DNA from: Myxococcota bacterium
GTDB lineage: Bacteria > Myxococcota_A > Polyangia > Nannocystales > Nannocystaceae
Length of the DNA: 64,000 nucleotides
Direction of reading: 5' to 3'
Assembly: GCA_039028615.1 (NCBI GenBank)
Contig: JBCCHT010000042.1
Location: 43,701 to 107,700, forward strand
The notes under the pieces are model-generated. The model ran no database searches. It was not told where the DNA came from and worked only from the letters and a program-made list of their open reading frames with translations. This document shows positions 13,921-49,492 of the stretch, piece after piece. Every line of letters starts with the position of its first letter. Within the stretch, counting starts at the first letter, position 1. The translations under genes and the position numbers were made by a program.

Positions 13921-15474
13921 TCAGCGTGCGATCGCGTCCGCGATGCGAATGCCGTCGAGCGCCGCGCTCATGATCCCGCCCGCGTAGCCCGCTCCTTCAC
14001 CGCACGGGTAGAGCCCCGCCACCGACGGCGATTGCAGGCTCTCGCGATCTCGATCGGTGCGCACGGGCGCGCTGGTCCGGGACTCCACCCCCACCGCGAT
14101 CCCTTCCGCCGACACGAAGCCCGGCATGCGCTCCCCGATGCGTCGCAGCGCCTCGCGCAGCGGCAGCGCCAGCCCGCCCAGCAGCTCGTCGAGCCGAGCC
14201 GAGGCCAGCCCTCGCGGGTAGCTGCAGACCGGCAACGCCGACGAGCTCCGTCCCGCCACGAAGTCGTCGATCCGCTGCGCGGGCGCGACATAGTCCCCGC
14301 CCCCCGCCTCGTACGCCGCCGCCTCGATCCGTCGCTGCAGCTTCAACCCCGCGAACACGTCGCTCGGATCGAGGCCCGCCGCCTCGAGCTGCGTCGGTCC
14401 GACCTCCGTCACGAACCCCGAGTTCGCGTACTTGCCTCGCCGTGACGAAGGGCTCCAGCCGTTGACCACCTGTCCCCCGTGCTCCGTCGCGGCCGGCACG
14501 ATGAACCCTCCCGGGCACATGCAGAACGAAAACGCTCCCGCGCCTTCCGCCTGCTCCACCAGACGATAGGCCGCGGCTCCCAGCGCCGGGTGCCCCGCCA
14601 GCCCTCCGAACTGCAGCCCATCGATCAACGGCTGCGGATGCTCCACCCGGAACCCCACCGCAAACGGCTTCGCCGACAACGCCACCCCGGCCTCGTGCAG
14701 CCACTGCGTCACATCCCGGGCCGAGTGTCCCACCGCCAGCACCACCGCCCGCGCATCGATCGTCTCCTGCTCCAGCCGCACCCCGCACACGCGCCCGTCC
14801 TTCACCACCAGCCCATCGACGCGCCGCCCGAACGCAAACTCCACCCCCGCGCTTTCGAGATGCTCCCGCATCGCCCCCACCACGCCGGGCAGGCGATTGG
14901 TCCCGATATGCGGCCGCGCATCCACCAAGATCTGCGACGGCGCCCCGTACCCCACGAACGCATCCAGCACCCGCTGCATGTCCCCCCGCTTGTGCGATCG
15001 CGTGTACAGCTTCCCATCGCTGAACGTCCCCGCCCCTCCCTCACCAAAACAGTAGTTGCTCTCCGGATCGAGCTGCCCCTGCTTGCTCAGCGCCGCCAGA
15101 TCCCGCCGTCGTGGCCGAACCGGCTTCCCCCGCTCCAGCACCACCGACCGAATCCCATGCTGCGCCAACGCCCACGCACAAAACGTCCCCGCCGGCCCCG
15201 CCCCCACGATCACCACCCCGGGTTCCCCACTCAACGTCGGAAGATCCACCGGCCCCCGCTCACTCGAGCTCGGCTTCTCTTCCCCCCGCATCACCAACTC
15301 CACCTCCAGCTGCAGCTGCACCCGCCCCCGCCGAGCATCGATCGACTTCCGCCGAACAACCGCCGCCACAACCTCCTTCACCCCCACCTTCCCCCGCTTC
15401 GCCGCCGCCCGACGCAGCCCCTCCTCATCAAAAAGAAGATCTGGATGAACCCGCAACTGAACCCGACGTCCCAC
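13921..15474 (-). CDS. FAD-dependent oxidoreductase (COG2509-type)
   Basis: IVGAGPAG, FGEGGAGTFSDGKL, PHIGT, FCMCPGG, GEGAGYAGGIMSAALDG. Confidence 0.92.
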   Translation of the reverse strand: MGRRVQLRVHPDLLFDEEGLRRAAAKRGKVGVKEVVAAVVRRKSIDARRGRVQLQLEVELVMRGEEKPSSSERGPVDLPTLSGEPGVVIVGAGPAGTFCAWALAQHGIRSVVLERGKPVRPRRRDLAALSKQGQLDPESNYCFGEGGAGTFSDGKLYTRSHKRGDMQRVLDAFVGYGAPSQILVDARPHIGTNRLPGVVGAMREHLESAGVEFAFGRRVDGLVVKDGRVCGVRLEQETIDARAVVLAVGHSARDVTQWLHEAGVALSAKPFAVGFRVEHPQPLIDGLQFGGLAGHPALGAAAYRLVEQAEGAGAFSFCMCPGGFIVPAATEHGGQVVNGWSPSSRRGKYANSGFVTEVGPTQLEAAGLDPSDVFAGLKLQRRIEAAAYEAGGGDYVAPAQRIDDFVAGRSSSALPVCSYPRGLASARLDELLGGLALPLREALRRIGERMPGFVSAEGIAVGVESRTSAPVRTDRDRESLQSPSVAGLYPCGEGAGYAGGIMSAALDGIRIADAIAR

Positions 15475-15631: not shown

Positions 15632-15944
15632 CCCACTCCAAGCACTCCCGCCCCTCACCCAAGCACCCCACCGAACCTCCAAGCAAGCCACCCCCCACCC
15701 AAGCAGAACCCACCCCACCGCCCGAACGGAAGCCGCCGTACGGGGAGGGCCAAAGCGAAGCCGCGTAGGATGGAGGGGGCCCGGTCGCGCGGAGGCGGCC
15801 GCCGACGACCGTCGAGAAACACCCGGGTATCATGGCCGCCGAGCACGTCCGGGAAGGGTTCCAGCCGTCAACAGGCGAGCCCCTGGTTCGAACACATCAC
15901 TCCCACTCCAAGCACTCCCGCCCCTCACCCAAGCACCCCACCGA
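15632..15944 (+). repeat. 43-bp direct repeats flanking repeat A copy 1 (15632-15674 and 15902-15944)
   Basis: CCCACTCCAAGCACTCCCGCCCCTCACCCAAGCACCCCACCGA is identical on both sides, each preceded by GTTCGAACA. Confidence 0.88.
15721..15894 (+). repeat. Dispersed repeat family A, copy 1
   Basis: Core GCGAAGCCGCGTAGGATGGAGGGGGCCCGGTCGCGCGGAGGCGGCCGCCGA...GGCCGCCGAGCACGTCCGGG(A/G)AGGGTTCCAGCCGTCAACAGGCGAGC shared with three other loci. Confidence 0.93.
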
Positions 15945-16011
15945 GCTCTCCGTTCGAACACTCCCCAACCCCCCTTCGCGCAACCAGAAATCCCCCCACC
16001 GCGAGCAAACT

Positions 16012-17139
16012 TCAAGACCCCGAAGAAGGCCCAGACGCCACCAACAACCCCGCCGCCACCGCCTTGCTCCGCATCGCATGCAACATCCGTCCCCGGTCCG
16101 CCGTATCCCGCCTCCACTTCCTCCCAAGCTTCGCCCGCACATCCGGGTTCAACCCCAACCTCCGAGCCCGCTTCCGAAAGTTCGCATTCGGCCCCACCGT
16201 CGCACAGTGCCCCCGCGAGAACCGACGATTCACCGTCGCATACGAATCCCCAAACCCTTGCGCCTCACACTCCCGCTGCGCCGTCCGAGCGGCCCAAACC
16301 GCGGTGATGATCGCCACCAACCCGTTGTCATCACAAAACACCCAAGGCGGCGCACTCGAATCCCAAACCGGCACAAAGTACGCCGGATTAAACCCAAAGG
16401 GCCCGTATCCAAATGCCCACGCCGGCTCCGACCCCGGCGAGACCGAGCCGTCCGTCGCCGTCACCTCGAACTCGATGATGTCGTCGAGATACGGGTTGTC
16501 GCGAAAGGTCTGCACCTGATGCAGCCGCGCCTTCGCCTTCCAGTACTCGCTGTCCTGCTTGCTCAACTTGGCCATGTGGGCCTGCAGCTCCGCCTCTTCG
16601 GTCGGCGAGTAGTGCAGGCGTCTCCATGCCGCGGTCGCGGCCTCGATGTCGGGATTGAGCACGTGCATGGCGTGCGGCCGATAGGTCGACTCCCGCATCG
16701 CCCACGCTCGAATCAGCCGCGGCTCGGCCCCCATCTCCTTGGCGACCAAGGTCACCAATTGAGAGAAGCGCTTCTCGTCGGCCTTGGTCCACGGACGACG
16801 GACTCGCTTGTAGCGACGACGACCCTCGTCATCGATCTTCACCCGCACGCGCTCGCACTGGTTGGGCGCACGACCCTTCAGGGTGGCTCCCTTGGCGGAG
16901 GCCAGCACGGGGGTGGGAGCCTCGGCGGCAGACGGAGCGCCCGCCTCGGTACCTTCGTCGGCATCGGCGGCCGCAACCACGGGCTGCGTTCGGGTCTCGG
17001 TGGCCGGATCTCCGGGGCTCGACGGAGCATCGACGTGCTCGACCTCGGCCTCCACGTGAACGACCTCGTACTCGGGCTCGCCCCCGGGGCCACACGATAC
17101 GACAGCGAAGATGCAGCCAAGCACGATAGCTCTGCCCAT
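16012..17139 (-). CDS. Lipoprotein with lytic transglycosylase (SLT)-like motif
   Basis: Lipobox VVSC; AKEMGAEPRLIRAWAMRESTYRPHA resembles SLT motif I with catalytic Glu. Confidence 0.6.
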   Translation of the reverse strand: MGRAIVLGCIFAVVSCGPGGEPEYEVVHVEAEVEHVDAPSSPGDPATETRTQPVVAAADADEGTEAGAPSAAEAPTPVLASAKGATLKGRAPNQCERVRVKIDDEGRRRYKRVRRPWTKADEKRFSQLVTLVAKEMGAEPRLIRAWAMRESTYRPHAMHVLNPDIEAATAAWRRLHYSPTEEAELQAHMAKLSKQDSEYWKAKARLHQVQTFRDNPYLDDIIEFEVTATDGSVSPGSEPAWAFGYGPFGFNPAYFVPVWDSSAPPWVFCDDNGLVAIITAVWAARTAQRECEAQGFGDSYATVNRRFSRGHCATVGPNANFRKRARRLGLNPDVRAKLGRKWRRDTADRGRMLHAMRSKAVAAGLLVASGPSSGS

Positions 17140-29737: not shown

Positions 29738-29819
29738 GGCGGGGTCTTTGTTTGTGTAAGTAGGGGGTTGTTCGAGGAGGGGAGTGTTTCGCGTGGGAGC
29801 CGAGAACCTTCGAGCGAAA

Positions 29820-29980
29820 GGCTCGCCTGTTGACGGCTGGAACCCTCCCCGGACGTGCTCGGCGGCCGTTTCAGCGGAGTGTTTCGAAACGGGTTCGGCG
29901 GCCGCCTCCGCGCGACCGGGTCCCCTCCATCCTACGCGGCTTCGCTTCAGCCCTCCCCGCACGCTTCCTCCCGTTCGGGG
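29820..29980 (-). repeat. Dispersed repeat family A, copy 2
   Basis: Reverse complement of the copy 1 core, between convergent genes. Confidence 0.93.
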
Positions 29981-30055
29981 GTAAGGGCGGATCTTGCTCC
30001 GCGAGCCCTCGCCGTTGGCAGGCCCGTCCACCCCTACGGGGACTCCGCGGCGACG

Positions 30056-43353: not shown

Positions 43354-44337
43354 TCAGGGGAAGCCGGGATCGGGATCTGGAGGCTCGACGCCCTCGTCGG
43401 TCTTGGGCGGATCGACCGGATCGGGGTCGACCCCGGTGTCCGAGACGCCGATCCATCGGCCGTGCTCTCCACACAAGCCATCGACCCCGGAACCGAAGTT
43501 GTAGAGGTCCCAGGTGATCGTCGGGTTGTTCGGATCGTCGACGACGGTCGCGGCCCCGTCTGGAGGCACGAGGGGGGTCACGCCGTTGTCCGCGGCCAGC
43601 GAGCGATACCCCGCGAGCTCTCCACACTCGGTCACGCAGTCGGCCGGATCGGGCGCCCCCAAGTGGAAGTTGAACGGCTCGGCAATACTCGGGTCGACCA
43701 CGTTCGACACCACGAGACTTCCATAGACCGGGTGCGTGAGGTTGTAGGCCTCGAGCTCGCAGTTGGCCACGTCGACCTGGTAGCGCTGCATCGCCAAGGT
43801 CACGCAGCCTTCGATGGGCCAGGGCAGCAGATCGATGTCGAGGCCGAGATCGATCTCGACCTCGTCTCCCACCGGGGGAAAGCCGCCCTCGCAGCACCCG
43901 TCGCACTGGACGCCCCAAAATCCCGTGGGCAACACGTCCACCACCACGAACTGCTCGACGGTGAGCAAGCAGTCGGGTTGCTCACCGTCGAAGTACAGGT
44001 CGAAGGGGGTGTCGAAGCCGACGTTGCACATCTTCGGGCCGATGCCCGTCTCCTCGGAGCCGATGCCCGTCTCGCCCGACGTCGCCGGATCGGTCGGATC
44101 GACGGGCCCGGTCTCGGCTCCCGTGGTCACCCCCGGGGTGTCGTCTCCTGCGGAGCCCTCGGCCGAGCCTTCTCCGGGGCGGCTCGTCTCCTCTCCGGGG
44201 CGATCGCCGGTCGTCACCGCGGAGGTGCCGCCCGTGTCCCCGTCGGAGCCTCCGGCCCCATCCCCGAACAGGGGATTGTCCCGGGCGCACCCGGTCAGGG
44301 CGATCACGCCCAGCATGCTCAATCTCAACCAAGCCAT
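43354..44337 (-). CDS. Cys-containing lipoprotein, unknown function
   Basis: MAWLRLSMLGVIALTGC lipobox; Gly/Thr/Glu linker. Confidence 0.7.
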   Translation of the reverse strand: MAWLRLSMLGVIALTGCARDNPLFGDGAGGSDGDTGGTSAVTTGDRPGEETSRPGEGSAEGSAGDDTPGVTTGAETGPVDPTDPATSGETGIGSEETGIGPKMCNVGFDTPFDLYFDGEQPDCLLTVEQFVVVDVLPTGFWGVQCDGCCEGGFPPVGDEVEIDLGLDIDLLPWPIEGCVTLAMQRYQVDVANCELEAYNLTHPVYGSLVVSNVVDPSIAEPFNFHLGAPDPADCVTECGELAGYRSLAADNGVTPLVPPDGAATVVDDPNNPTITWDLYNFGSGVDGLCGEHGRWIGVSDTGVDPDPVDPPKTDEGVEPPDPDPGFP

Positions 44338-44530
44338 GGAGTTAGTTGTAGCCGAAGTGGTGGCCTTCGTCCCGATCCTGGCCATTGGATCAACCGGGCG
44401 ACGAAACCTGTAGGCAGCGAACCGACACCGACTCGATCGAGGCCGAAACGCCCTCCCGTCGGCACCCATGCCGGGAACCTCGGGCGGCTTCGCTGCCACC
44501 AACCAGTGGATCAAAAACCGGAGTCTCGCC

Positions 44531-46045
44531 ATGCGCTTCGCCACTGTCACCGCCCGTCCCCGCCTGCGCCTCGCCCGCTGCTTTTTCGCCTCTGTGGGCC
44601 TGTTGTGGGCCTGTGAAGCCGCTCCCACCGCTCGCCGCGATCCCGAACCCGAGCCCGAGATGGAGCTCATCGACCCCGCGGCCGAGCCCCTCGCGCCCGA
44701 GCTGGCGACCCAGGTCGCCACCCATCTCGCCGACTACGGTCGCCACTGGCCCGCCTTCCGATTCCACGGCTCCGTGATCGTCGCGCGTGGCGACGAGGTG
44801 GGCGTCGACCAGGCGTTCGGCTTCGCCGACCTCGTGGAGGGCGTGCCCAACGAAAGCGACACCATGTTTCGCATCGGCACCTTGTCGGCCCAGCTCACCG
44901 CGGCCGCCGTGCTGCGCCTGGCCGCGGCCGATCGGCTGCGCCTCGACGATCCCGTGTCTCGTTACCTGCCCTACTGGCCCAACGGTGAGCGGATCACCCT
45001 CGAGCACTTGTTGTCGCATCGCAGCGGCATCCCCAACTACACCGACATGCAGTCCTTCGAGGCCTGGAAGCGACAGGAGCACACGCTGCAGACCGCGGCG
45101 TCGTGGTTCCGCAACCTACCGCTCGAGTTCGATCCGGGCACCGACACGAGCCCGAGCAACTCCAACTACATGCTGCTCGGGCTCGTCCTCGAGTCCATCA
45201 CCGGGCAGCCTCACCACGAGGTCGTGGCCGAGCAGGTGCTCGAGCCGCTCGGCATGCATCGCACGCAATTCGCCGACACCGAGCATGCTCAGGCCGTCGG
45301 GATGGAGTATCACGAGGACGAGCGGCTGGTGCTCGTGGCCGACGTCGAGCCGTCGGCGTTCGGGTCGGCGGGCGGATGGCTGTCGACCACGGGCGACCTG
45401 CTGCGATGGGTTCGGGGCTTGAACGACGAGCAGTTTTTGCCGTCGTCCCTCGTGGAGCGCATGCAGGGGCGGGGCAGTGAAGGCTTTGGGTACGCGTGGA
45501 CGGACAGCGAGATCGCGGGGCGCGATGCGTTGACGTGGCCGGGGCTCATCGATGGCTTCAATGCTTCGCTGGTGCATGTGCCTTCGGACGACACCACGAT
45601 CATCGTGCTGTCGAACTCGGAGGTGCTGCCCACGGGGCAGCTGGTGGGGGAGATTGCTTCGCTGATCTACGAAGGGGAGCTGCCGAAGCGGGTCGAGGCG
45701 CGGGCGGTTCCGGTGGAGATGGAGGAGCAGCGGCGGGCGAAGGGGCGGTATGTGCTGACGCGGGGGACGGAGCAGGCGCTCGAAGGGGCGGATCCGGAGG
45801 CGATGGTGCAGCTGGCGGAGATTCGGGTGGTGGAGCAGGAGGGGGTGATGGTGTTGGATATTCCGATCCATGGGAGGAAGCGGATGCATCCGGCGGGGGC
45901 GGGGCGGTTTTTCTTCAAGGATGGGGGGCAGAGTACGGCGCAGTTTATTGAGCGGGGGGAGAAGGCGGCGTTGTTGGTGTTGGAGGCGAATGGGAGTGAG
46001 CTTCGGTATGTGCGGATTGCGGAGGATGGGGTGGCGGGGGCTTGA
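44531..46045 (+). CDS. Beta-lactamase/serine hydrolase (AmpC-like) fold lipoprotein, catalytic motifs altered
   Basis: FGFAD, FRIGTLSAQLTA, LLSHRSGI, SNSNYMLLG, PLGM, AGGWLST. Confidence 0.85.
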   Translation: MRFATVTARPRLRLARCFFASVGLLWACEAAPTARRDPEPEPEMELIDPAAEPLAPELATQVATHLADYGRHWPAFRFHGSVIVARGDEVGVDQAFGFADLVEGVPNESDTMFRIGTLSAQLTAAAVLRLAAADRLRLDDPVSRYLPYWPNGERITLEHLLSHRSGIPNYTDMQSFEAWKRQEHTLQTAASWFRNLPLEFDPGTDTSPSNSNYMLLGLVLESITGQPHHEVVAEQVLEPLGMHRTQFADTEHAQAVGMEYHEDERLVLVADVEPSAFGSAGGWLSTTGDLLRWVRGLNDEQFLPSSLVERMQGRGSEGFGYAWTDSEIAGRDALTWPGLIDGFNASLVHVPSDDTTIIVLSNSEVLPTGQLVGEIASLIYEGELPKRVEARAVPVEMEEQRRAKGRYVLTRGTEQALEGADPEAMVQLAEIRVVEQEGVMVLDIPIHGRKRMHPAGAGRFFFKDGGQSTAQFIERGEKAALLVLEANGSELRYVRIAEDGVAGA

Positions 46046-46321
46046 GGGTTCTGCTTCGAACGGAACGCTTGTTGAATTTTGCTTGGGCGGGGGGGTGCTT
46101 GCTTCGAGAACGTTGGTGAGTGTTCGAACGAGCGGCTCGCCTGTTGACGGCTGGAACCCTCCCCGGACGTGCTCGGCGGCCGTGGTCGCGGAGTGTTTCT
46201 CGGCGGGTGTCGGCGGCCGCCTCCGCGCGACCGGGCCCCCTCCATCCTACGCGGCTTCGCTTCAGCCCTCCCCCGGCACCGGCTCCCGAGCGGAGGGGGG
46301 TTGCGCTCTGCTAGAGCGACG
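46043..46321 (-). repeat. Dispersed repeat family A, copy 3 (left arm of inverted pair)
   Basis: Reverse complement nearly identical to 46722-46970. Confidence 0.95.
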
Positions 46322-46721
46322 GGCGGCTTGCTCGTCGTCCTTTGTGCGCGCTCGCTTTGCTTCGCTTGCTTGGGGGGTGACTCGGCAGTCTGAAGTGCAT
46401 CGCGTGATCGCATCTTTGTATGCGCGCCGCCTTGTTTGCCTTCACAGGACTCGATCTCGTCGCTCGATTTGCTCTGGCTCCGCGCTGCGCGACTCGTCCT
46501 TTGCTGTGGGTTGCCACCGGCTTCGACAGGCAATGCATCGGTTCGTTTGGTTCCCTGCAGGCTTCCTGTAGCGAGCCACGGTGTTCCGTCGCTTGCTCGG
46601 GAGCCCATCCTCAGGCTGAAAACCTTCATCACAGAGTTACGACACGTCCATCCGCCGTCCCTCCCATCAGCCTCTATGCGGCGACGCCACCGCGCAACTC
46701 GCCACTCGAGCAAGACCAACC

Positions 46722-46970
46722 CTCGCTCGAGCAGAGTGCGACCGCCCCCCGTTCGGGAGCCGGTGCCGGGGGAGGGCTGAAGCGAAGCCGCGTAGGATGG
46801 AGGGGGCCCGGTCGCGCGGAGGCGGCCGCCGACACCCGTCGAGAAACACTCCGCGACCACGGCCGCCGAGCACGTCCGGGGAGGGTTCCAGCCGTCAACA
46901 GGCGAGCCGCTCGTTCGAACACTCACCAACGTTCTCGAGCAAGCAGCCCCGCGCCCAAGCAGAACCCTCA
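46722..46970 (+). repeat. Dispersed repeat family A, copy 4 (right arm of inverted pair)
   Basis: Same core as copies 1-3; extended identity to copy 3. Confidence 0.95.
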
Positions 46971-47296
46971 GCCCTCCGCCAACCACTCCCCCCGCATCCA
47001 CCAACCCCCATGGCCCCAATGTCGCGCTCTGACGACGATGCCCCGGTGCCAATTATCGAGGGGCACCAGCCGCCATCGCGGTCCCGGGCGGCAGCTGTTC
47101 ATCTCGGTCGCATCGGTGCACTCGGCCCGAGGTGAGGGCGCCGAACGCACTGGCCGAAACTGTATTCAGAGGCGGTCGGAGGGGGTCTGTTCGACGAAGG
47201 GGTGATCCGTGGTGCGTGCCACTCCGCGGTGCGGTGGGGCAATCGTACTCACTGTCGATCGTGCCCGTGGCATCGGCTTTGCAGTTTTGGGAGGGC

Positions 47297-47944
47297 ATGA
47301 AGATGAGTTCCTTGCTTGGCTTGACCCCTTTTTTCGCCTCGGCGCTGTTGCTGACCGGGTGCCCCGATGGGGGCGGTGGCAACAGCGAAACTACGAGCGC
47401 CGAAACCGAGTCCTCGGGCGAAACGGAGGCCGAAACCGATGGAGAGACGGAGGCCGAAACCGACGGAGAGACCGACGAGACCGCGTGCGGCACGAGCTGC
47501 GAGACCGCGGGTGAGACGGAAGGGGAGACCGAAGGTGAAACGGAGGGAGAGACGGAAGGCGAGACGGAAGGAGCGTGTACGCCCGAGGGCACGGAGTGTG
47601 GAGACGATCCGTGTTGCGAGGGGCTGGCCTGCGATGCGGAGACGAACACCTGCGAGGCGGCGGCCTGCGGCGCCGCGGGGGACGACTGTACGGAGTCCGA
47701 GTGTTGTGAGGGGCTCGTCTGCGGCGGGGAGAGCTCGCAGTGCGAAAAGCCGGCCGAGTGCGCCGGGCCCGATCAGGACTGCACGGAGATGAAGTGTTGC
47801 GACGGCCTGGCGTGCGATCCGAGCGCGTCTCAGTGCGTGGAAGAAGAGGCGACCTGCTCGAATGAAGGGGACGAATGCATCGAGCAGGGGTGCTGCGAGG
47901 GGCTGACCTGCGACGGCGAGAGCTCGCAGTGCGTGCCCGAGTAG
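47297..47944 (+). CDS. Glu-rich lipoprotein with four tandem 6-Cys (knottin-like) repeats
   Basis: Lipobox LLTGC; (ETEG)n linker; four C-x6-C-x4-CC-x4-C-x6-C units. Confidence 0.85.
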   Translation: MKMSSLLGLTPFFASALLLTGCPDGGGGNSETTSAETESSGETEAETDGETEAETDGETDETACGTSCETAGETEGETEGETEGETEGETEGACTPEGTECGDDPCCEGLACDAETNTCEAAACGAAGDDCTESECCEGLVCGGESSQCEKPAECAGPDQDCTEMKCCDGLACDPSASQCVEEEATCSNEGDECIEQGCCEGLTCDGESSQCVPE

Positions 47945-48049
47945 CGCGCCCACGGTGAGCGCGGGTGCGGTGGCGGCCATCGGCGGGGGCCAGGCTGCCG
48001 CCGCACTCGCGAACCGTCTTCGCGAATGCGAACCCGAGCGCGTGCTCGT

Positions 48050-49492
48050 CTACTCGAGCACGCGGAACTCGATGCGTCGGTTGTTGGCGCGGCCTTCGGG
48101 TGAGGCGTTGCTGTCGATGGGCTCGTCGGGGCCGGCACCACGGGTGATGATGCGCTCGGCCGAGACGCCGTGGTCGACGAGGTACTGCCTGACCGCGTCG
48201 GCCCGCTGCTGCGACAGCTTCATGTTGCGATCACGGTTGCCGCTGTTGTCGGTGTGGCCGCTGGCCTCGACGCGCAGGTGCTCGTACTTGAGCATGACCT
48301 CGACGGCCTTATCGAGCACGGGCAGCGAGTCCTTGGTGAGCCGGGCCTTGCCGAGCTCGAAGTTGATGCCGTCGAGGGTGCCGCCGAAGCTCTGGAGGTC
48401 GTCGGGGACTTCGTCGGGGCAGCCGTCGTCGTCCTCGAACTTGTTGACCGTCTCCGGTTTGTCGGGGCACTTGTCGTCGTCGCCCTCGATGCCGTCGCCA
48501 TCGGGGTCGGGATCGGGGCAGCCGGCGGGCTCGATCCCGGGCTCGTCGGGGCAGGCGTCCTCGGTGTCGACGAAGCCGTCGTTGTCCCGGTCGTCGGGCA
48601 GCGGGCAGCCATCGGGGGCGACGCCGGGCAGGTCGGGACACTTGTCCTCGGCGTCAGAGAAGCCGTCGCTGTCGCGATCGGAGGGGGTCAGGGGCGGCGG
48701 CTCGGGCTCGGGCTCGGGCTGCGCGTCGACGTCCTTTTTGCGGCCGAGGGTGAAGGACACGCCCAGCAGCACGCCGAGGTTGTTGGTGGCGCCTCCGCTG
48801 ACGCCGGTCCGCGGGGTGATGGTGTCGCGCAGGTCGAGCCGTACGGCGATCTGGCGGTTGATGTAGGCCTTGGCGCCGATGCCCAGGTGGAAGGTGGCGT
48901 CGACGTCGGTGCCGAGGATGACCTCGGGGTTGCTTCGAATGCCCAGCGCGCCCGCACCCACGACGACGAAGGGGGCGACGCTCCAAAAGGGCAGCTGCGC
49001 GACGGCGTGGGCTCGACCGGCGGCGAGGGTGACGGCGTAGCCATCCTCGAGGGTGGTGGTGGGCATGTAGGCGCCCTCGAGCTCGAGGCCCAAAAAGCGC
49101 AGGGGGAAGTAGCCGAAGCGGCCGCCGACGGCGGGGGCGATGCGGGCGAGCGGCAAGAACCCCTGGCGGGGTCGGCCGATGCGGGGCTCGAACAGCTCGA
49201 GGTCCTGCGCGGGCACGAACATGCCCACGAAGCCGCCGAGCTCGATCATGTTGCGCTCGGGCGCCCAGCGATCGATCCACGGCAGGTGCTCGCGTTTGCT
49301 GAGCTCTTGGTCGCCCTCGGCGGTGGCCTTCAGGCGACCTTGGAGCCCGCCTCGCTTGCCTTCGGGCTCGGCTTCGGTCGCATCACCATCGCCGCTCGCC
49401 TCGGGAGAGGGAGCGGCATGAGCCACGGCGGGGCCGATGGCCAAAAGCCCCGCCGCCAAGCCGACAGCATGGATCCTCGCGCAACGGGACAT
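48050..49492 (-). CDS. OmpA family protein with beta-barrel and thrombospondin type-3 repeats
   Basis: DxDxDG..D..D.CP repeats; INFELG, GHTD, LSQQRA, NRRIEF. Confidence 0.92.
   Translation of the reverse strand: MSRCARIHAVGLAAGLLAIGPAVAHAAPSPEASGDGDATEAEPEGKRGGLQGRLKATAEGDQELSKREHLPWIDRWAPERNMIELGGFVGMFVPAQDLELFEPRIGRPRQGFLPLARIAPAVGGRFGYFPLRFLGLELEGAYMPTTTLEDGYAVTLAAGRAHAVAQLPFWSVAPFVVVGAGALGIRSNPEVILGTDVDATFHLGIGAKAYINRQIAVRLDLRDTITPRTGVSGGATNNLGVLLGVSFTLGRKKDVDAQPEPEPEPPPLTPSDRDSDGFSDAEDKCPDLPGVAPDGCPLPDDRDNDGFVDTEDACPDEPGIEPAGCPDPDPDGDGIEGDDDKCPDKPETVNKFEDDDGCPDEVPDDLQSFGGTLDGINFELGKARLTKDSLPVLDKAVEVMLKYEHLRVEASGHTDNSGNRDRNMKLSQQRADAVRQYLVDHGVSAERIITRGAGPDEPIDSNASPEGRANNRRIEFRVLE

Follow-up and report, generated by a model that had tools for sequence, protein, structure and literature searches.

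Strand-specific loss of cytosine beside dispersed hairpin repeats in a Myxococcota genome

The window analyzed in this study is a stretch of 64,000 nt (C42:43701-107700) from the genome of a Myxococcota bacterium (G000; 12.27 Mb in 94 contigs, 68% GC), in which a gene for a beta-lactamase-family serine hydrolase runs into an inverted pair of a dispersed repeat, the family-A repeat, and becomes progressively depleted of codons ending in C. Repeats with the same architecture, which fall into four families (A to D) with a conserved hairpin, are flanked across the genome by tracts poor in C and A. The GC skew of these tracts is anchored to the element, depends on strand and on element orientation, is graded with distance, is independent of the direction of the neighboring genes and is derived. 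The sequence evidence tips slightly toward an element-anchored, strand-specific mutational process, acting via single-strand exposure or resynthesis, as the cause. Positions given without a contig name are those of the window, and its features are listed in Table 1.

Graded depletion of cytosine beside the repeats

The original prediction, which was made from the letters of the window, had counted 26 C-ending codons among the 40 at 44702-44821 of the hydrolase gene and 3 among the 88 at 45782-46045, and both counts were reproduced exactly. The remaining codons at 45782-46045 end in G (65), T (18) or A (2). At the genome mean of 0.5, the binomial probability of at most 3 C-ending codons in 87 is 7e-22, and the gene ranks first among 5,547 predicted genes (obtained with an open reading frame (ORF)/GC3 filter and spanning 70% of the genome) in having the fewest C-ending codons in its final 87. 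Counted per 40 codons along the gene, C at the third position (C3) runs 24, 25, 25, 20, 19, 22, 15, 12, 14, 5, 1, 3 and 0, and G at the third position (G3) climbs to 28-35 per 40 codons as C3 drops. The GC skew in 200-nt windows is -0.14 at 45100, ranges from +0.23 up to +0.565 (45800-45999) within the zone 45400..46103, and is approximately zero within the repeat copy (-0.007 at 46100-46299). Codon changes from the orthologue majority to G000 in this zone include GGC>GGG, CGC>CGG, CCC>CCG, GCC>GCG and ACC>ACG, together with GAC>GAT, ATC>ATT, TAC>TAT and CTG/CTC>TTG. Identity of the hydrolase to its orthologues falls more in the last third (0.40-0.47, compared with 0.53-0.61 among the orthologues) than in the middle of the gene.

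The plus-strand frame of this gene is genuine, because orthologues from five relatives align through residues 495-502 of 504 (coverage of residues 12-502) and because Logan contigs, used as an independent assembly check and derived from the likely (possibly the same) source run, agree with the assembly. They show 0 differences at 44300-46133, 46260-46782 and 46909-47500, including the junction into the repeat at 46133, and no sequence variants were found in the unique flanks in the Logan contigs of this one run. A shadow-ORF misreading, in which the true gene would be the opposite-strand ORF 45667..47052, was ruled out by the protein homology of the plus-strand frame, which reaches the C-terminus.

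The same pattern recurs genome-wide. The "top" strand of an element reads ...CCTGTTGACGG...CGTGCTC...GCGCGCG..., and flank profiles are oriented by the element. Along the 5' flanks of family A (43 full flanks of 46 outer flanks), the skew leaves a baseline of -0.07 and rises through +0.17, +0.20, +0.28 and +0.40 in the last four 100-nt bins, the final bin being positive in 43 of 43 flanks with an AT skew of -0.41. For all families together (87 outer flanks), the values per 200 nt on the 5' side are +0.34 next to the element (82 of 87 positive), +0.19, +0.07 and 0 by 600-800 nt. Unpaired elements carry skew of the same sign on their 3' side (21 flanks), declining from +0.35 to +0.10 at 1400-1600 nt; up to 1.6 kb, every 200-nt bin has positive values in 17-21 of the 21 flanks. 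On the top strand, the G/T-rich tract reaches approximately 0.6 kb from the element in the 5' direction and 1.6 kb in the 3' direction, and the gradient is anchored to the outermost copy at every array length.

Extreme skew is rare in this genome: across 244,836 windows of 300 nt the standard deviation is 0.088, and |skew| reaches at least 0.4 in 0.107%. These windows form 60 regions, 35 of which lie <1 kb from an A/B element with the predicted sign in 35 of 35 cases; eight further regions adjoin C/D elements. The flanks are unique sequences, with only 18 BLAST rows among the 800-nt flanks, nearly all of them in the last 65 nt and between partners of the same locus, so that the flank as part of the repeat is ruled out past approximately 65-100 nt. 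Three control repeats showed no skew (all oriented bin means |mean| <= 0.061); they were a low-complexity coding repeat and kinase-domain paralogues rather than mobile elements and, as such, poor controls, and a fourth repeat picked for this purpose proved to be family A. The predicted C loss that is centered on the repeat, dependent on its orientation and graded was borne out by the genome-wide flank profiles and the 35 signs, and skew tracks element position and orientation when all copies are plotted. The orientation rule needs amendment in one respect, namely that the skew around an unpaired element has the same sign on both sides, with a longer reach on the 3' side.

Neighboring genes are recoded along with these tracts. 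In the control set of 5,348 genes, from which 129 genes <3 kb from an element were excluded, C3 is flat at 0.49-0.52 up to the stop codon, which rules out a generic gene-end effect. The last 40 codons of the 48 genes that end just 5' of a co-oriented element have C3 of 0.27, G3 of 0.54 and T3 of 0.16; counted back from the stop per 40 codons, C3 of the same genes is 0.27, 0.31, 0.38, 0.46, 0.49 and 0.52, and is normal by approximately 200 codons. Gene orientation at 43 5' flanks is into the element in 31 cases and opposite in seven, and five flanks hold no gene by the ORF/GC3 filter. Seven genes diverging from the 5' side lean toward the element-defined sign. In ten genes that lie on the 3' side in opposite orientation, the change is the complement (C3 0.67, G3 0.14, A3 0.17); it is thus the element, and not the gene, that determines which DNA strand is affected.

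At four-fold degenerate sites, the composition near elements compared with control genes is 0.27 versus 0.51 for C, 0.60 versus 0.38 for G, 0.10 versus 0.06 for T and 0.02 versus 0.05 for A. The T fraction of NNY codons is 0.42 near elements and 0.15 in controls, that of A in NNR codons 0.08 and 0.17, and the value for Leu TTR 0.28 and 0.09; genes in the opposite orientation have A in 0.55 of their NNR codons, against the same control of 0.17. The predicted depletion of C is confirmed by these values, but it is not of C alone, A being depleted as well. Both outcomes that had been proposed, C>G and C>T, are seen, the former at four-fold sites and the latter at two-fold sites and Leu first positions. 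Sequence context has no strong effect on the loss: C3 is approximately halved in most four-fold families, and C after T is the least depleted (GTN from 0.47 to 0.32, CTN from 0.45 to 0.38). A signature of a TC- or other context-specific deaminase was not seen in this four-fold family comparison. Amino-acid composition is nearly constant near elements and the change is almost all synonymous or non-coding, in line with the earlier proposal that proteins are kept.

Comparison with orthologues, which the original prediction had recommended, covered four genes in four or five related genomes and found neither element nor skew in the latter. In five relatives, the beta-lactamase-like gene has 12-17 C in its last 40 codons, and no element lies within 386-1,494 nt downstream. 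The gene for a flavin adenine dinucleotide (FAD)-dependent protein (13921..15474) has C3 of 1, 3, 5, 13, 10, 8, 15, 15, 17 and 17 per 50 codons in G000, compared with 16-32 per 50 codons in five orthologues of 74-81% identity. In a tmcA-like gene, G3 is 2-9 per 50 codons over the last ~1.5 kb versus 15-32 in full bins of four orthologues, and C3 of trpS drops to 3 and 2 versus 19-34 in four orthologues. None of the orthologous loci of the FAD-dependent, tmcA-like and trpS genes holds an element. A property of the gene families as the cause was ruled out, the orthologues being flat in C3 or G3, and judged from these alignments the skewed state is derived relative to the orthologues. A DNA search found weak element matches in four of 40 relatives. 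In G004, another species of the genus, the 5'-side skew is +0.30 to +0.56 at five of five diverged copies, and an exact-pattern scan located the core in two metagenome-assembled genomes titled Myxococcales bacterium and Myxococcota bacterium.

Families, hairpin and arrangement of the repeats

A BLAST search of the genome with the copy at 46104-46322 gave 77 matches, profile searches added diverged relatives in which only the ~117-nt core is kept, and families C and D were revealed by inspecting skew peaks without A/B matches. Counting elements of at least 90 nt, the genome holds 130 elements in 68 loci (97 A/B, 18 C and 15 D), with 25 of the 68 loci at contig ends. The restriction to family-A repeats that had been proposed does not hold, as four families with one hairpin architecture show skew. 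The families differ in sequence and have in common a 5' motif CCTG(Y)T..CG, the blocks CGTGCTC and GCGCGCG, and a long imperfect hairpin. In the family-C hairpin (16 copies), 43 pairs are predicted, of which 11 show compensatory double changes and almost none is broken. At least seven distinct complementary helix haplotypes occur across the families, for example CCCCGG/CCGGGG, CCCACT/AGTGGG, GGGTTCCG/CGGAACCC and GTATTCCGG/CCGGAATAC. Rfam 15 gave 0 matches at E <= 1 in 44000-48500. Within the hairpin core of family A, substitutions amount to 239 losses and 95 gains of C, and A>G changes (56 from 10 A sites) compare with T>C changes of 28 from 23 T sites.

Elements sit after or between genes, and head-to-tail units have a period of ~230 nt. 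Neighboring elements <1.5 kb apart are arranged +- in 27 cases, ++ in 16, -- in 15 and -+ in 0. The DNA between inverted copies is locus-specific, lower in GC and often tandemly repeated, and is not conserved among 16 loci. Partners within a locus share a haplotype, yet may be heterologous (A+ with D- on C72 and C53). Inverted partners are also more alike than copies at other loci, and this likeness extends beyond the family unit into the flank, which points to an inverted duplication at the locus or to partners undergoing gene conversion.

No conserved gene was identified within the centers using Pfam and PADLOC, the only genes there being one for a bSEFIR/TIR protein, an EEP-family nuclease-like ORF and ordinary genes. 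The bSEFIR/TIR protein (C18:62653-63645, 330 aa, low GC of ~55%) is encoded alone between inverted B-type hairpin copies; it is a defense-type gene (PADLOC bSEFIR, 146 bits; Pfam SEFIR/TIR_2), and the hairpins around it are flanked by G-rich and C-rich host gene ends. The Exo_endo_phos (EEP) family nuclease-like ORF (C8:1089-2144) is centered between inverted family-A arrays. At the C17 locus, an intrinsic terminator (GC stem plus T run, 35 nt) lies between the stop codon of the upstream gene and a family-A element, which is therefore not simply the terminator of that gene; G-rich tandem repeats of ~60 nt follow this element.

Candidate mechanism, rival explanations and known systems

The element-anchored mutational process, to which we give slightly better than an even chance, presupposes that the cause is mutational and not selective, that single-strandedness or resynthesis is the intermediate step and that a strand-specific event at the hairpin starts it; these three points we infer. 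A more specific proposal, which we hold tentatively and rate somewhat below even, is that the hairpin repeats nucleate tracts of hypermutation on one strand, from a fixed position and in a fixed orientation, perhaps through an enzyme of the HUH/RAYT type. The event at the hairpin might be a nick by an HUH-type enzyme, or the stalling of a polymerase that copies the top strand, leaving a gap. Over ~0.6 kb 5' of the element and ~1.6 kb 3' of it, the top strand would then be repeatedly single-stranded or resynthesized. The exposed strand would lose C and, to a lesser degree, A, with G as the sink where any base is synonymous and T where only C and T are. Purifying selection would purge amino-acid changes, so that neighboring genes would be silently rewritten. 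If the repeats act as nucleation sites, each insertion would impose a polar, kilobase-scale mutational field on host genes, one strong enough to remove almost every synonymous C while a repeat family lasts. The route originally put forward, in which a nick, ssDNA or an R-loop exposes C to deamination or abasic-site bypass, is a candidate cause. Single-strand exposure fits the joint loss of C and A: according to a study of mitochondrial genomes (PMC3269012), deamination of C and A is far more rapid when DNA is single-stranded, and produces G/T-rich gradients on the mitochondrial H strand. Repeated resynthesis of the top strand would presumably leave an identical signature.

The term targeted mutagenesis "system" in the original prediction has not been established. 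No enzyme has been linked to the A-D repeats (deaminase, reverse-transcriptase and error-prone polymerase genes were not searched for), and the RAYT-like genes described here are flanked by private inverted repeats. The co-occurring HUH/RAYT genes that had been suggested are present in the genome as two RAYT-like genes, but they are not tied to the A-D repeats. A weak Y1_Tnp match led to a 310-aa gene (C13:40464-41393) with a 66% identical paralogue (C8:231440-232330). In the 310-aa protein, N65, H66, H68 (SNHYH), Y126 and N130 are fully or almost fully conserved among 11 homologues and stand in the expected HUH/tyrosine order; their catalytic roles are assumed here by analogy to IS608 TnpA. 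Profile scores are borderline (PF01797, 23.8 bits at a cut-off of 23; NCBIfam REP_Tyr_transpos, 34 bits at a cut-off of 80), and no PDB match was found by sequence. The best Foldseek match of the structural model (pLDDT 82.9) is 4ER8_A, a RAYT with REP hairpin (E 1.3e-6, TM 0.70 on the target); ISDra2 and IS608 TnpA rank next, and ~170 C-terminal residues are unmatched. The family combines a Y1 HUH domain with this conserved C-terminal extension of ~170 aa, which carries an invariant P..GT motif. It is insertion-sequence-like in several genomes from the same taxonomic family and class, where it is multi-copy (up to ~20 matches).

Both RAYT-like genes lie between a G-rich left and a C-rich right flank, and one of them has the recoded trpS as its neighbor. 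The inverted repeats that border them are private and 15-21 nt long (four and three local copies), and no A-D element lies beside either gene. The flanks of homologues in 10 other genomes are mostly unskewed; the RAYT-like protein family as such does not bring skew. G004 has elements and skew, and a RAYT-like gene was not found in this genome, which is 88% complete. Because of the private repeats, the unskewed homologue flanks and G004 without such a gene, a tie between the RAYT-like HUH genes and the A-D repeats is a lead, not a finding.

Several observations weigh against an element-anchored mutational process or complicate it. Folding energies of the core are no better than those of shuffled sequences for A (z +0.6) and D (z +2.0), and beat them only modestly for B2 (z -2.35) and C (z -2.0 to -3.5). 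When the entire A unit is considered, G has changed more often than C (G>A 179 versus C>T 100), a net loss of C being confined to the core. The main product at four-fold sites is G, not T as simple deamination yields, which needs C>G transversions or a long-term GC-favoring force. Skew shows no dose effect of tandem copies (0.35, 0.32 and 0.28 for arrays of one, two and three). Among the 60 extreme-skew regions, 17 have no recognized element (e.g., C11:155401-156200, C28:50951-51550, C30:65751-66200 and C49:86001-86450) and may represent further families or a different cause. Some copies are unskewed on one or both sides, including the 3' side of 29782-30000, the family-D copy at the window end and the single copy of G002, which lacks 5'-side skew and has +0.30 on its 3' side. 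Three metagenome contigs with the core also differ, one having a strong 5' side (to -0.60), one skew on the 3' side only and one none.

The most serious rival, which we regard as unlikely, treats the elements as passengers: a third cause would make intergenic sites both skewed and insertion-prone, for example double-strand breaks that recur between convergent genes, or cleavage there by gyrase, with subsequent 5' resection exposing the 3' tails as single strands. It would account for the +- arrangement of elements <1.5 kb apart (27 cases, never -+), for partners that share haplotypes as if homogenized by recombination (96% identical arms), for heterologous pairs such as A+ with D-, and for other insertions with similar G-rich and C-rich flanks, namely the two RAYT-like genes and the bSEFIR/TIR gene; the outer-flank polarity of pairs is also that of 5' resection from a central break, as resection is generally understood. 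A break at or beside an element, however, predicts opposite signs on its two sides, so that a two-ended break fits inverted pairs and not single elements, whose sign is the same on both sides, as checked against orthologues for the FAD-dependent and tmcA-like genes. The start of the gradient at the outermost copy of an array of any length and the agreement of orientation with sign in 35 of 35 regions also speak against it, and break resection as the sole cause was set aside for its misfit with unpaired elements. Exposure of the lagging strand only was set aside by reasoning, both members of an inverted pair being skewed. Slightly less probable again is mutagenesis by transcription or R-loops, in which the element would carry or attract strong transcription in its + direction and the non-template strand, exposed perhaps in R-loops that the hairpin and G-rich RNA stabilize, would lose C. 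An excess of G and T on the non-template strand is the classical signature of transcription, the 3'-side reach of ~1.6 kb is transcript-like and a gene reads into the element at 31 of 43 5' flanks. Yet 10 genes on the 3' side and seven on the 5' side run against the element and bear the element-defined sign, contrary to what transcription of these genes would produce, the 5'-side gradient that rises toward the element is left unexplained, and no sigma-70-like promoter was detected in 45900-47150 by a consensus scan, which is a weak test for this phylum.

Selection appears improbable, and a little more so than transcription. A strand of G and T cannot self-pair, and the RNA read from it is rich in G and poor in C in one direction and C-rich in the other, which might keep the hairpin as the sole structure in ssDNA or RNA or make incoming antisense transcripts good Rho substrates, although these pairing and Rho arguments are conjectural. 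The almost wholly synonymous or non-coding change, the conserved amino-acid composition and the C loss without strong sequence context are compatible with it; it would, however, have to act at hundreds of synonymous sites per locus, with C3 down to 0-3 of 40, and the smooth decay with unequal reach resembles a process with a tract length. That some copies are unskewed is a further difficulty for it. An artefact of assembly, binning or sequencing chemistry is close to negligible. The assembly is in 94 contigs with 25 of 68 element loci at contig ends, and the Logan contigs do not bridge repeats; but reading frames stay open with protein homology to the last residues, changes are synonymous, the Logan contigs agree on the unique flanks with 0 differences, and the pattern recurs in the G004 assembly and in one metagenome contig. 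A gene-end effect and an assembly artefact had been named beforehand as possible refutations, and the flat control genes and identical Logan contigs argue against both.

In architecture, the A-D repeats are closest to REP/REPIN elements. REPIN units, as described in PMC3337134, have a paired variable spacer, several families per genome, clusters and inverted arrangements. The A-D repeats are likewise dispersed, multi-copy and mostly extragenic, with complementary halves, a variable but paired spacer and a clustered or inverted arrangement, and G000 has two genes for whose structural model the solved RAYT-REP complex 4ER8 is the nearest match. The A-D repeats differ in their size (units of ~230 nt with a 115-170-nt hairpin, against an 89 bp example in that paper), and no cognate RAYT flanked by same-family repeats was found in G000. 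The REPIN/RAYT literature examined mentions no flanking compositional gradient, and the term "GC skew" is absent from it. In its chemistry, the pattern resembles the vertebrate mitochondrial H strand, where PMC3269012 describes loss of C and A and gain of G and T in proportion to single-strand exposure, in a gradient along the molecule that is clearest at synonymous sites. The mitochondrial case has one origin in a small genome, unlike the ~68 loci here, at which the effect spans 1-2 kb, is anchored to a repeat and occurs in either orientation. The main four-fold gain here is moreover G rather than T.

Other known processes are less similar. As in kataegis and in the clusters of activation-induced deaminase (AID) at switch regions, C changes on one strand (C>T and C>G) extend over kilobase tracts beside a DNA event. 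Those clusters arise on resected or otherwise single-stranded DNA, are somatic or experimental and reflect TC- or WRC-specific deaminases, whereas the changes here are evolutionarily fixed, lack TC preference and do not differ in sign between the two sides of a single element. Diversity-generating retroelements also cause a localized, directional change of a gene 3' end beside a structured DNA element. Their targets are adenines, they depend on a template repeat and a reverse transcriptase, and the outcome is diversity at the amino-acid level; here C is lost, the change is synonymous, the flanks are unique with no template copy, and both gene orientations and both sides are affected. Miniature inverted-repeat transposable elements and cargo-carrying transposons with terminal inverted repeats, which have one repeat at both ends and a conserved interior, differ from a set in which centers are unrelated at 16 loci, partners may be heterologous and many elements are unpaired. 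Replicative GC skew, which keeps its sign throughout a replichore and changes it only at the origin and terminus, differs in scale, as the sign here switches within <1 kb at each pair and the zones are 0.6-1.6 kb long. An account of repeat-anchored local skew or recoding was not found by full-text literature searches, subscription-only papers lying outside their scope.

Local mutation rates in bacteria are usually attributed to replication and transcription, whereas here a mobile or duplicative repeat appears to set both rate and direction for the genes next to it. If this holds, REP/REPIN-like repeats would have a measurable cost or effect on host genes, their flanks would provide a natural read-out of the tract length and polarity of DNA transactions at hairpins, and scans of codon usage, horizontal gene transfer and selection could be misled near repeats. 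Should the repeats indeed act as nucleation sites, they would represent a natural, element-anchored local mutator in a bacterial chromosome, and the mechanism, if transplantable, would supply a small natural module for mutagenesis directed to a given strand and position.

Repeat copies and neighboring genes in the window

Table 1. Repeat copies, skewed zones and adjoining genes in the window.
Feature	Position	Strand	Remarks
FAD-dependent protein gene	13921..15474	-	PF21688; on the 3' side of copy 15686..15917, co-oriented; recoded from its 5' end
Family-A repeat, unpaired	15686..15917	-	nhmmer match C42:59386-59617; skew -0.5 to -0.65 on both sides
3' end of a 393-aa gene	16012..16500	-	ORF reading toward copy 15686..15917; G-rich sense strand; no Pfam family
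Family-A repeat, unpaired	29782..30000	+	C42:73482-73700; 5' flank skewed +0.34 (400 nt), 3' side +0.01 to -0.24
Beta-lactamase-family serine hydrolase gene	44531..46045	+	PF00144, 187 bits, residues 81-366; 3' third recoded
G/T-rich, C- and A-poor zone, 5' side of copy 3	45400..46103	+	coding to 46045, then non-coding linker
Family-A repeat (copy 3)	46104..46322	+	inverted-repeat arm; hairpin core ~46134-46275; nhmmer score 206; folds as a nested long hairpin
Center between inverted copies	46323..46719		locus-specific; left half A-poor; lower GC
Family-A repeat, inverted partner	46720..46938	-	96% identical to copy 3 (219-nt arms)
Short C/A-rich flank, 5' side of inverted copy	46939..47052		GC skew -0.29 at 46900-47099, ~0 by 47000-47199
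Family-D repeat at window and contig end	63838..63982	-	BLAST match C42:107538-107682; after class II ribonucleotide reductase gene

At the inverted pair beside the hydrolase gene, the center has an AT skew of -0.55 and a GC content of 0.61 at 46300-46499, and the Logan contig across it (46260-46782) shows 0 differences. The flip of skew at the inverted copy that had been noted earlier was recovered in part: the plus strand is C/A-rich at 46600-47100 (-0.29), but this side fades within ~150 nt. Beyond it, the G-rich codons of a lipoprotein-like gene at 47299-47950 mask any C-rich zone expected past the inverted copy; this gene contains three 93-96-nt Cys-rich repeats with acidic Thr/Glu/Asp linkers. 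A weaker inverted-repeat extension (46014-46056/46957-46999) spans the last ~10 codons and the stop of the hydrolase gene.

The family-D copy at the end of the window has little skew (3' side -0.09 to +0.12), and ribonucleotide reductase domains were identified in the gene next to it. Around the unpaired copy 15686..15917, the plus-strand skew is -0.42 to -0.55 at 15900-16300. A perfect, C/A-rich 43-nt direct repeat (15632-15674 and 15902-15944) brackets this copy; the direct repeat could be a linker belonging to a partial second unit, or else a long duplication that arose at insertion.

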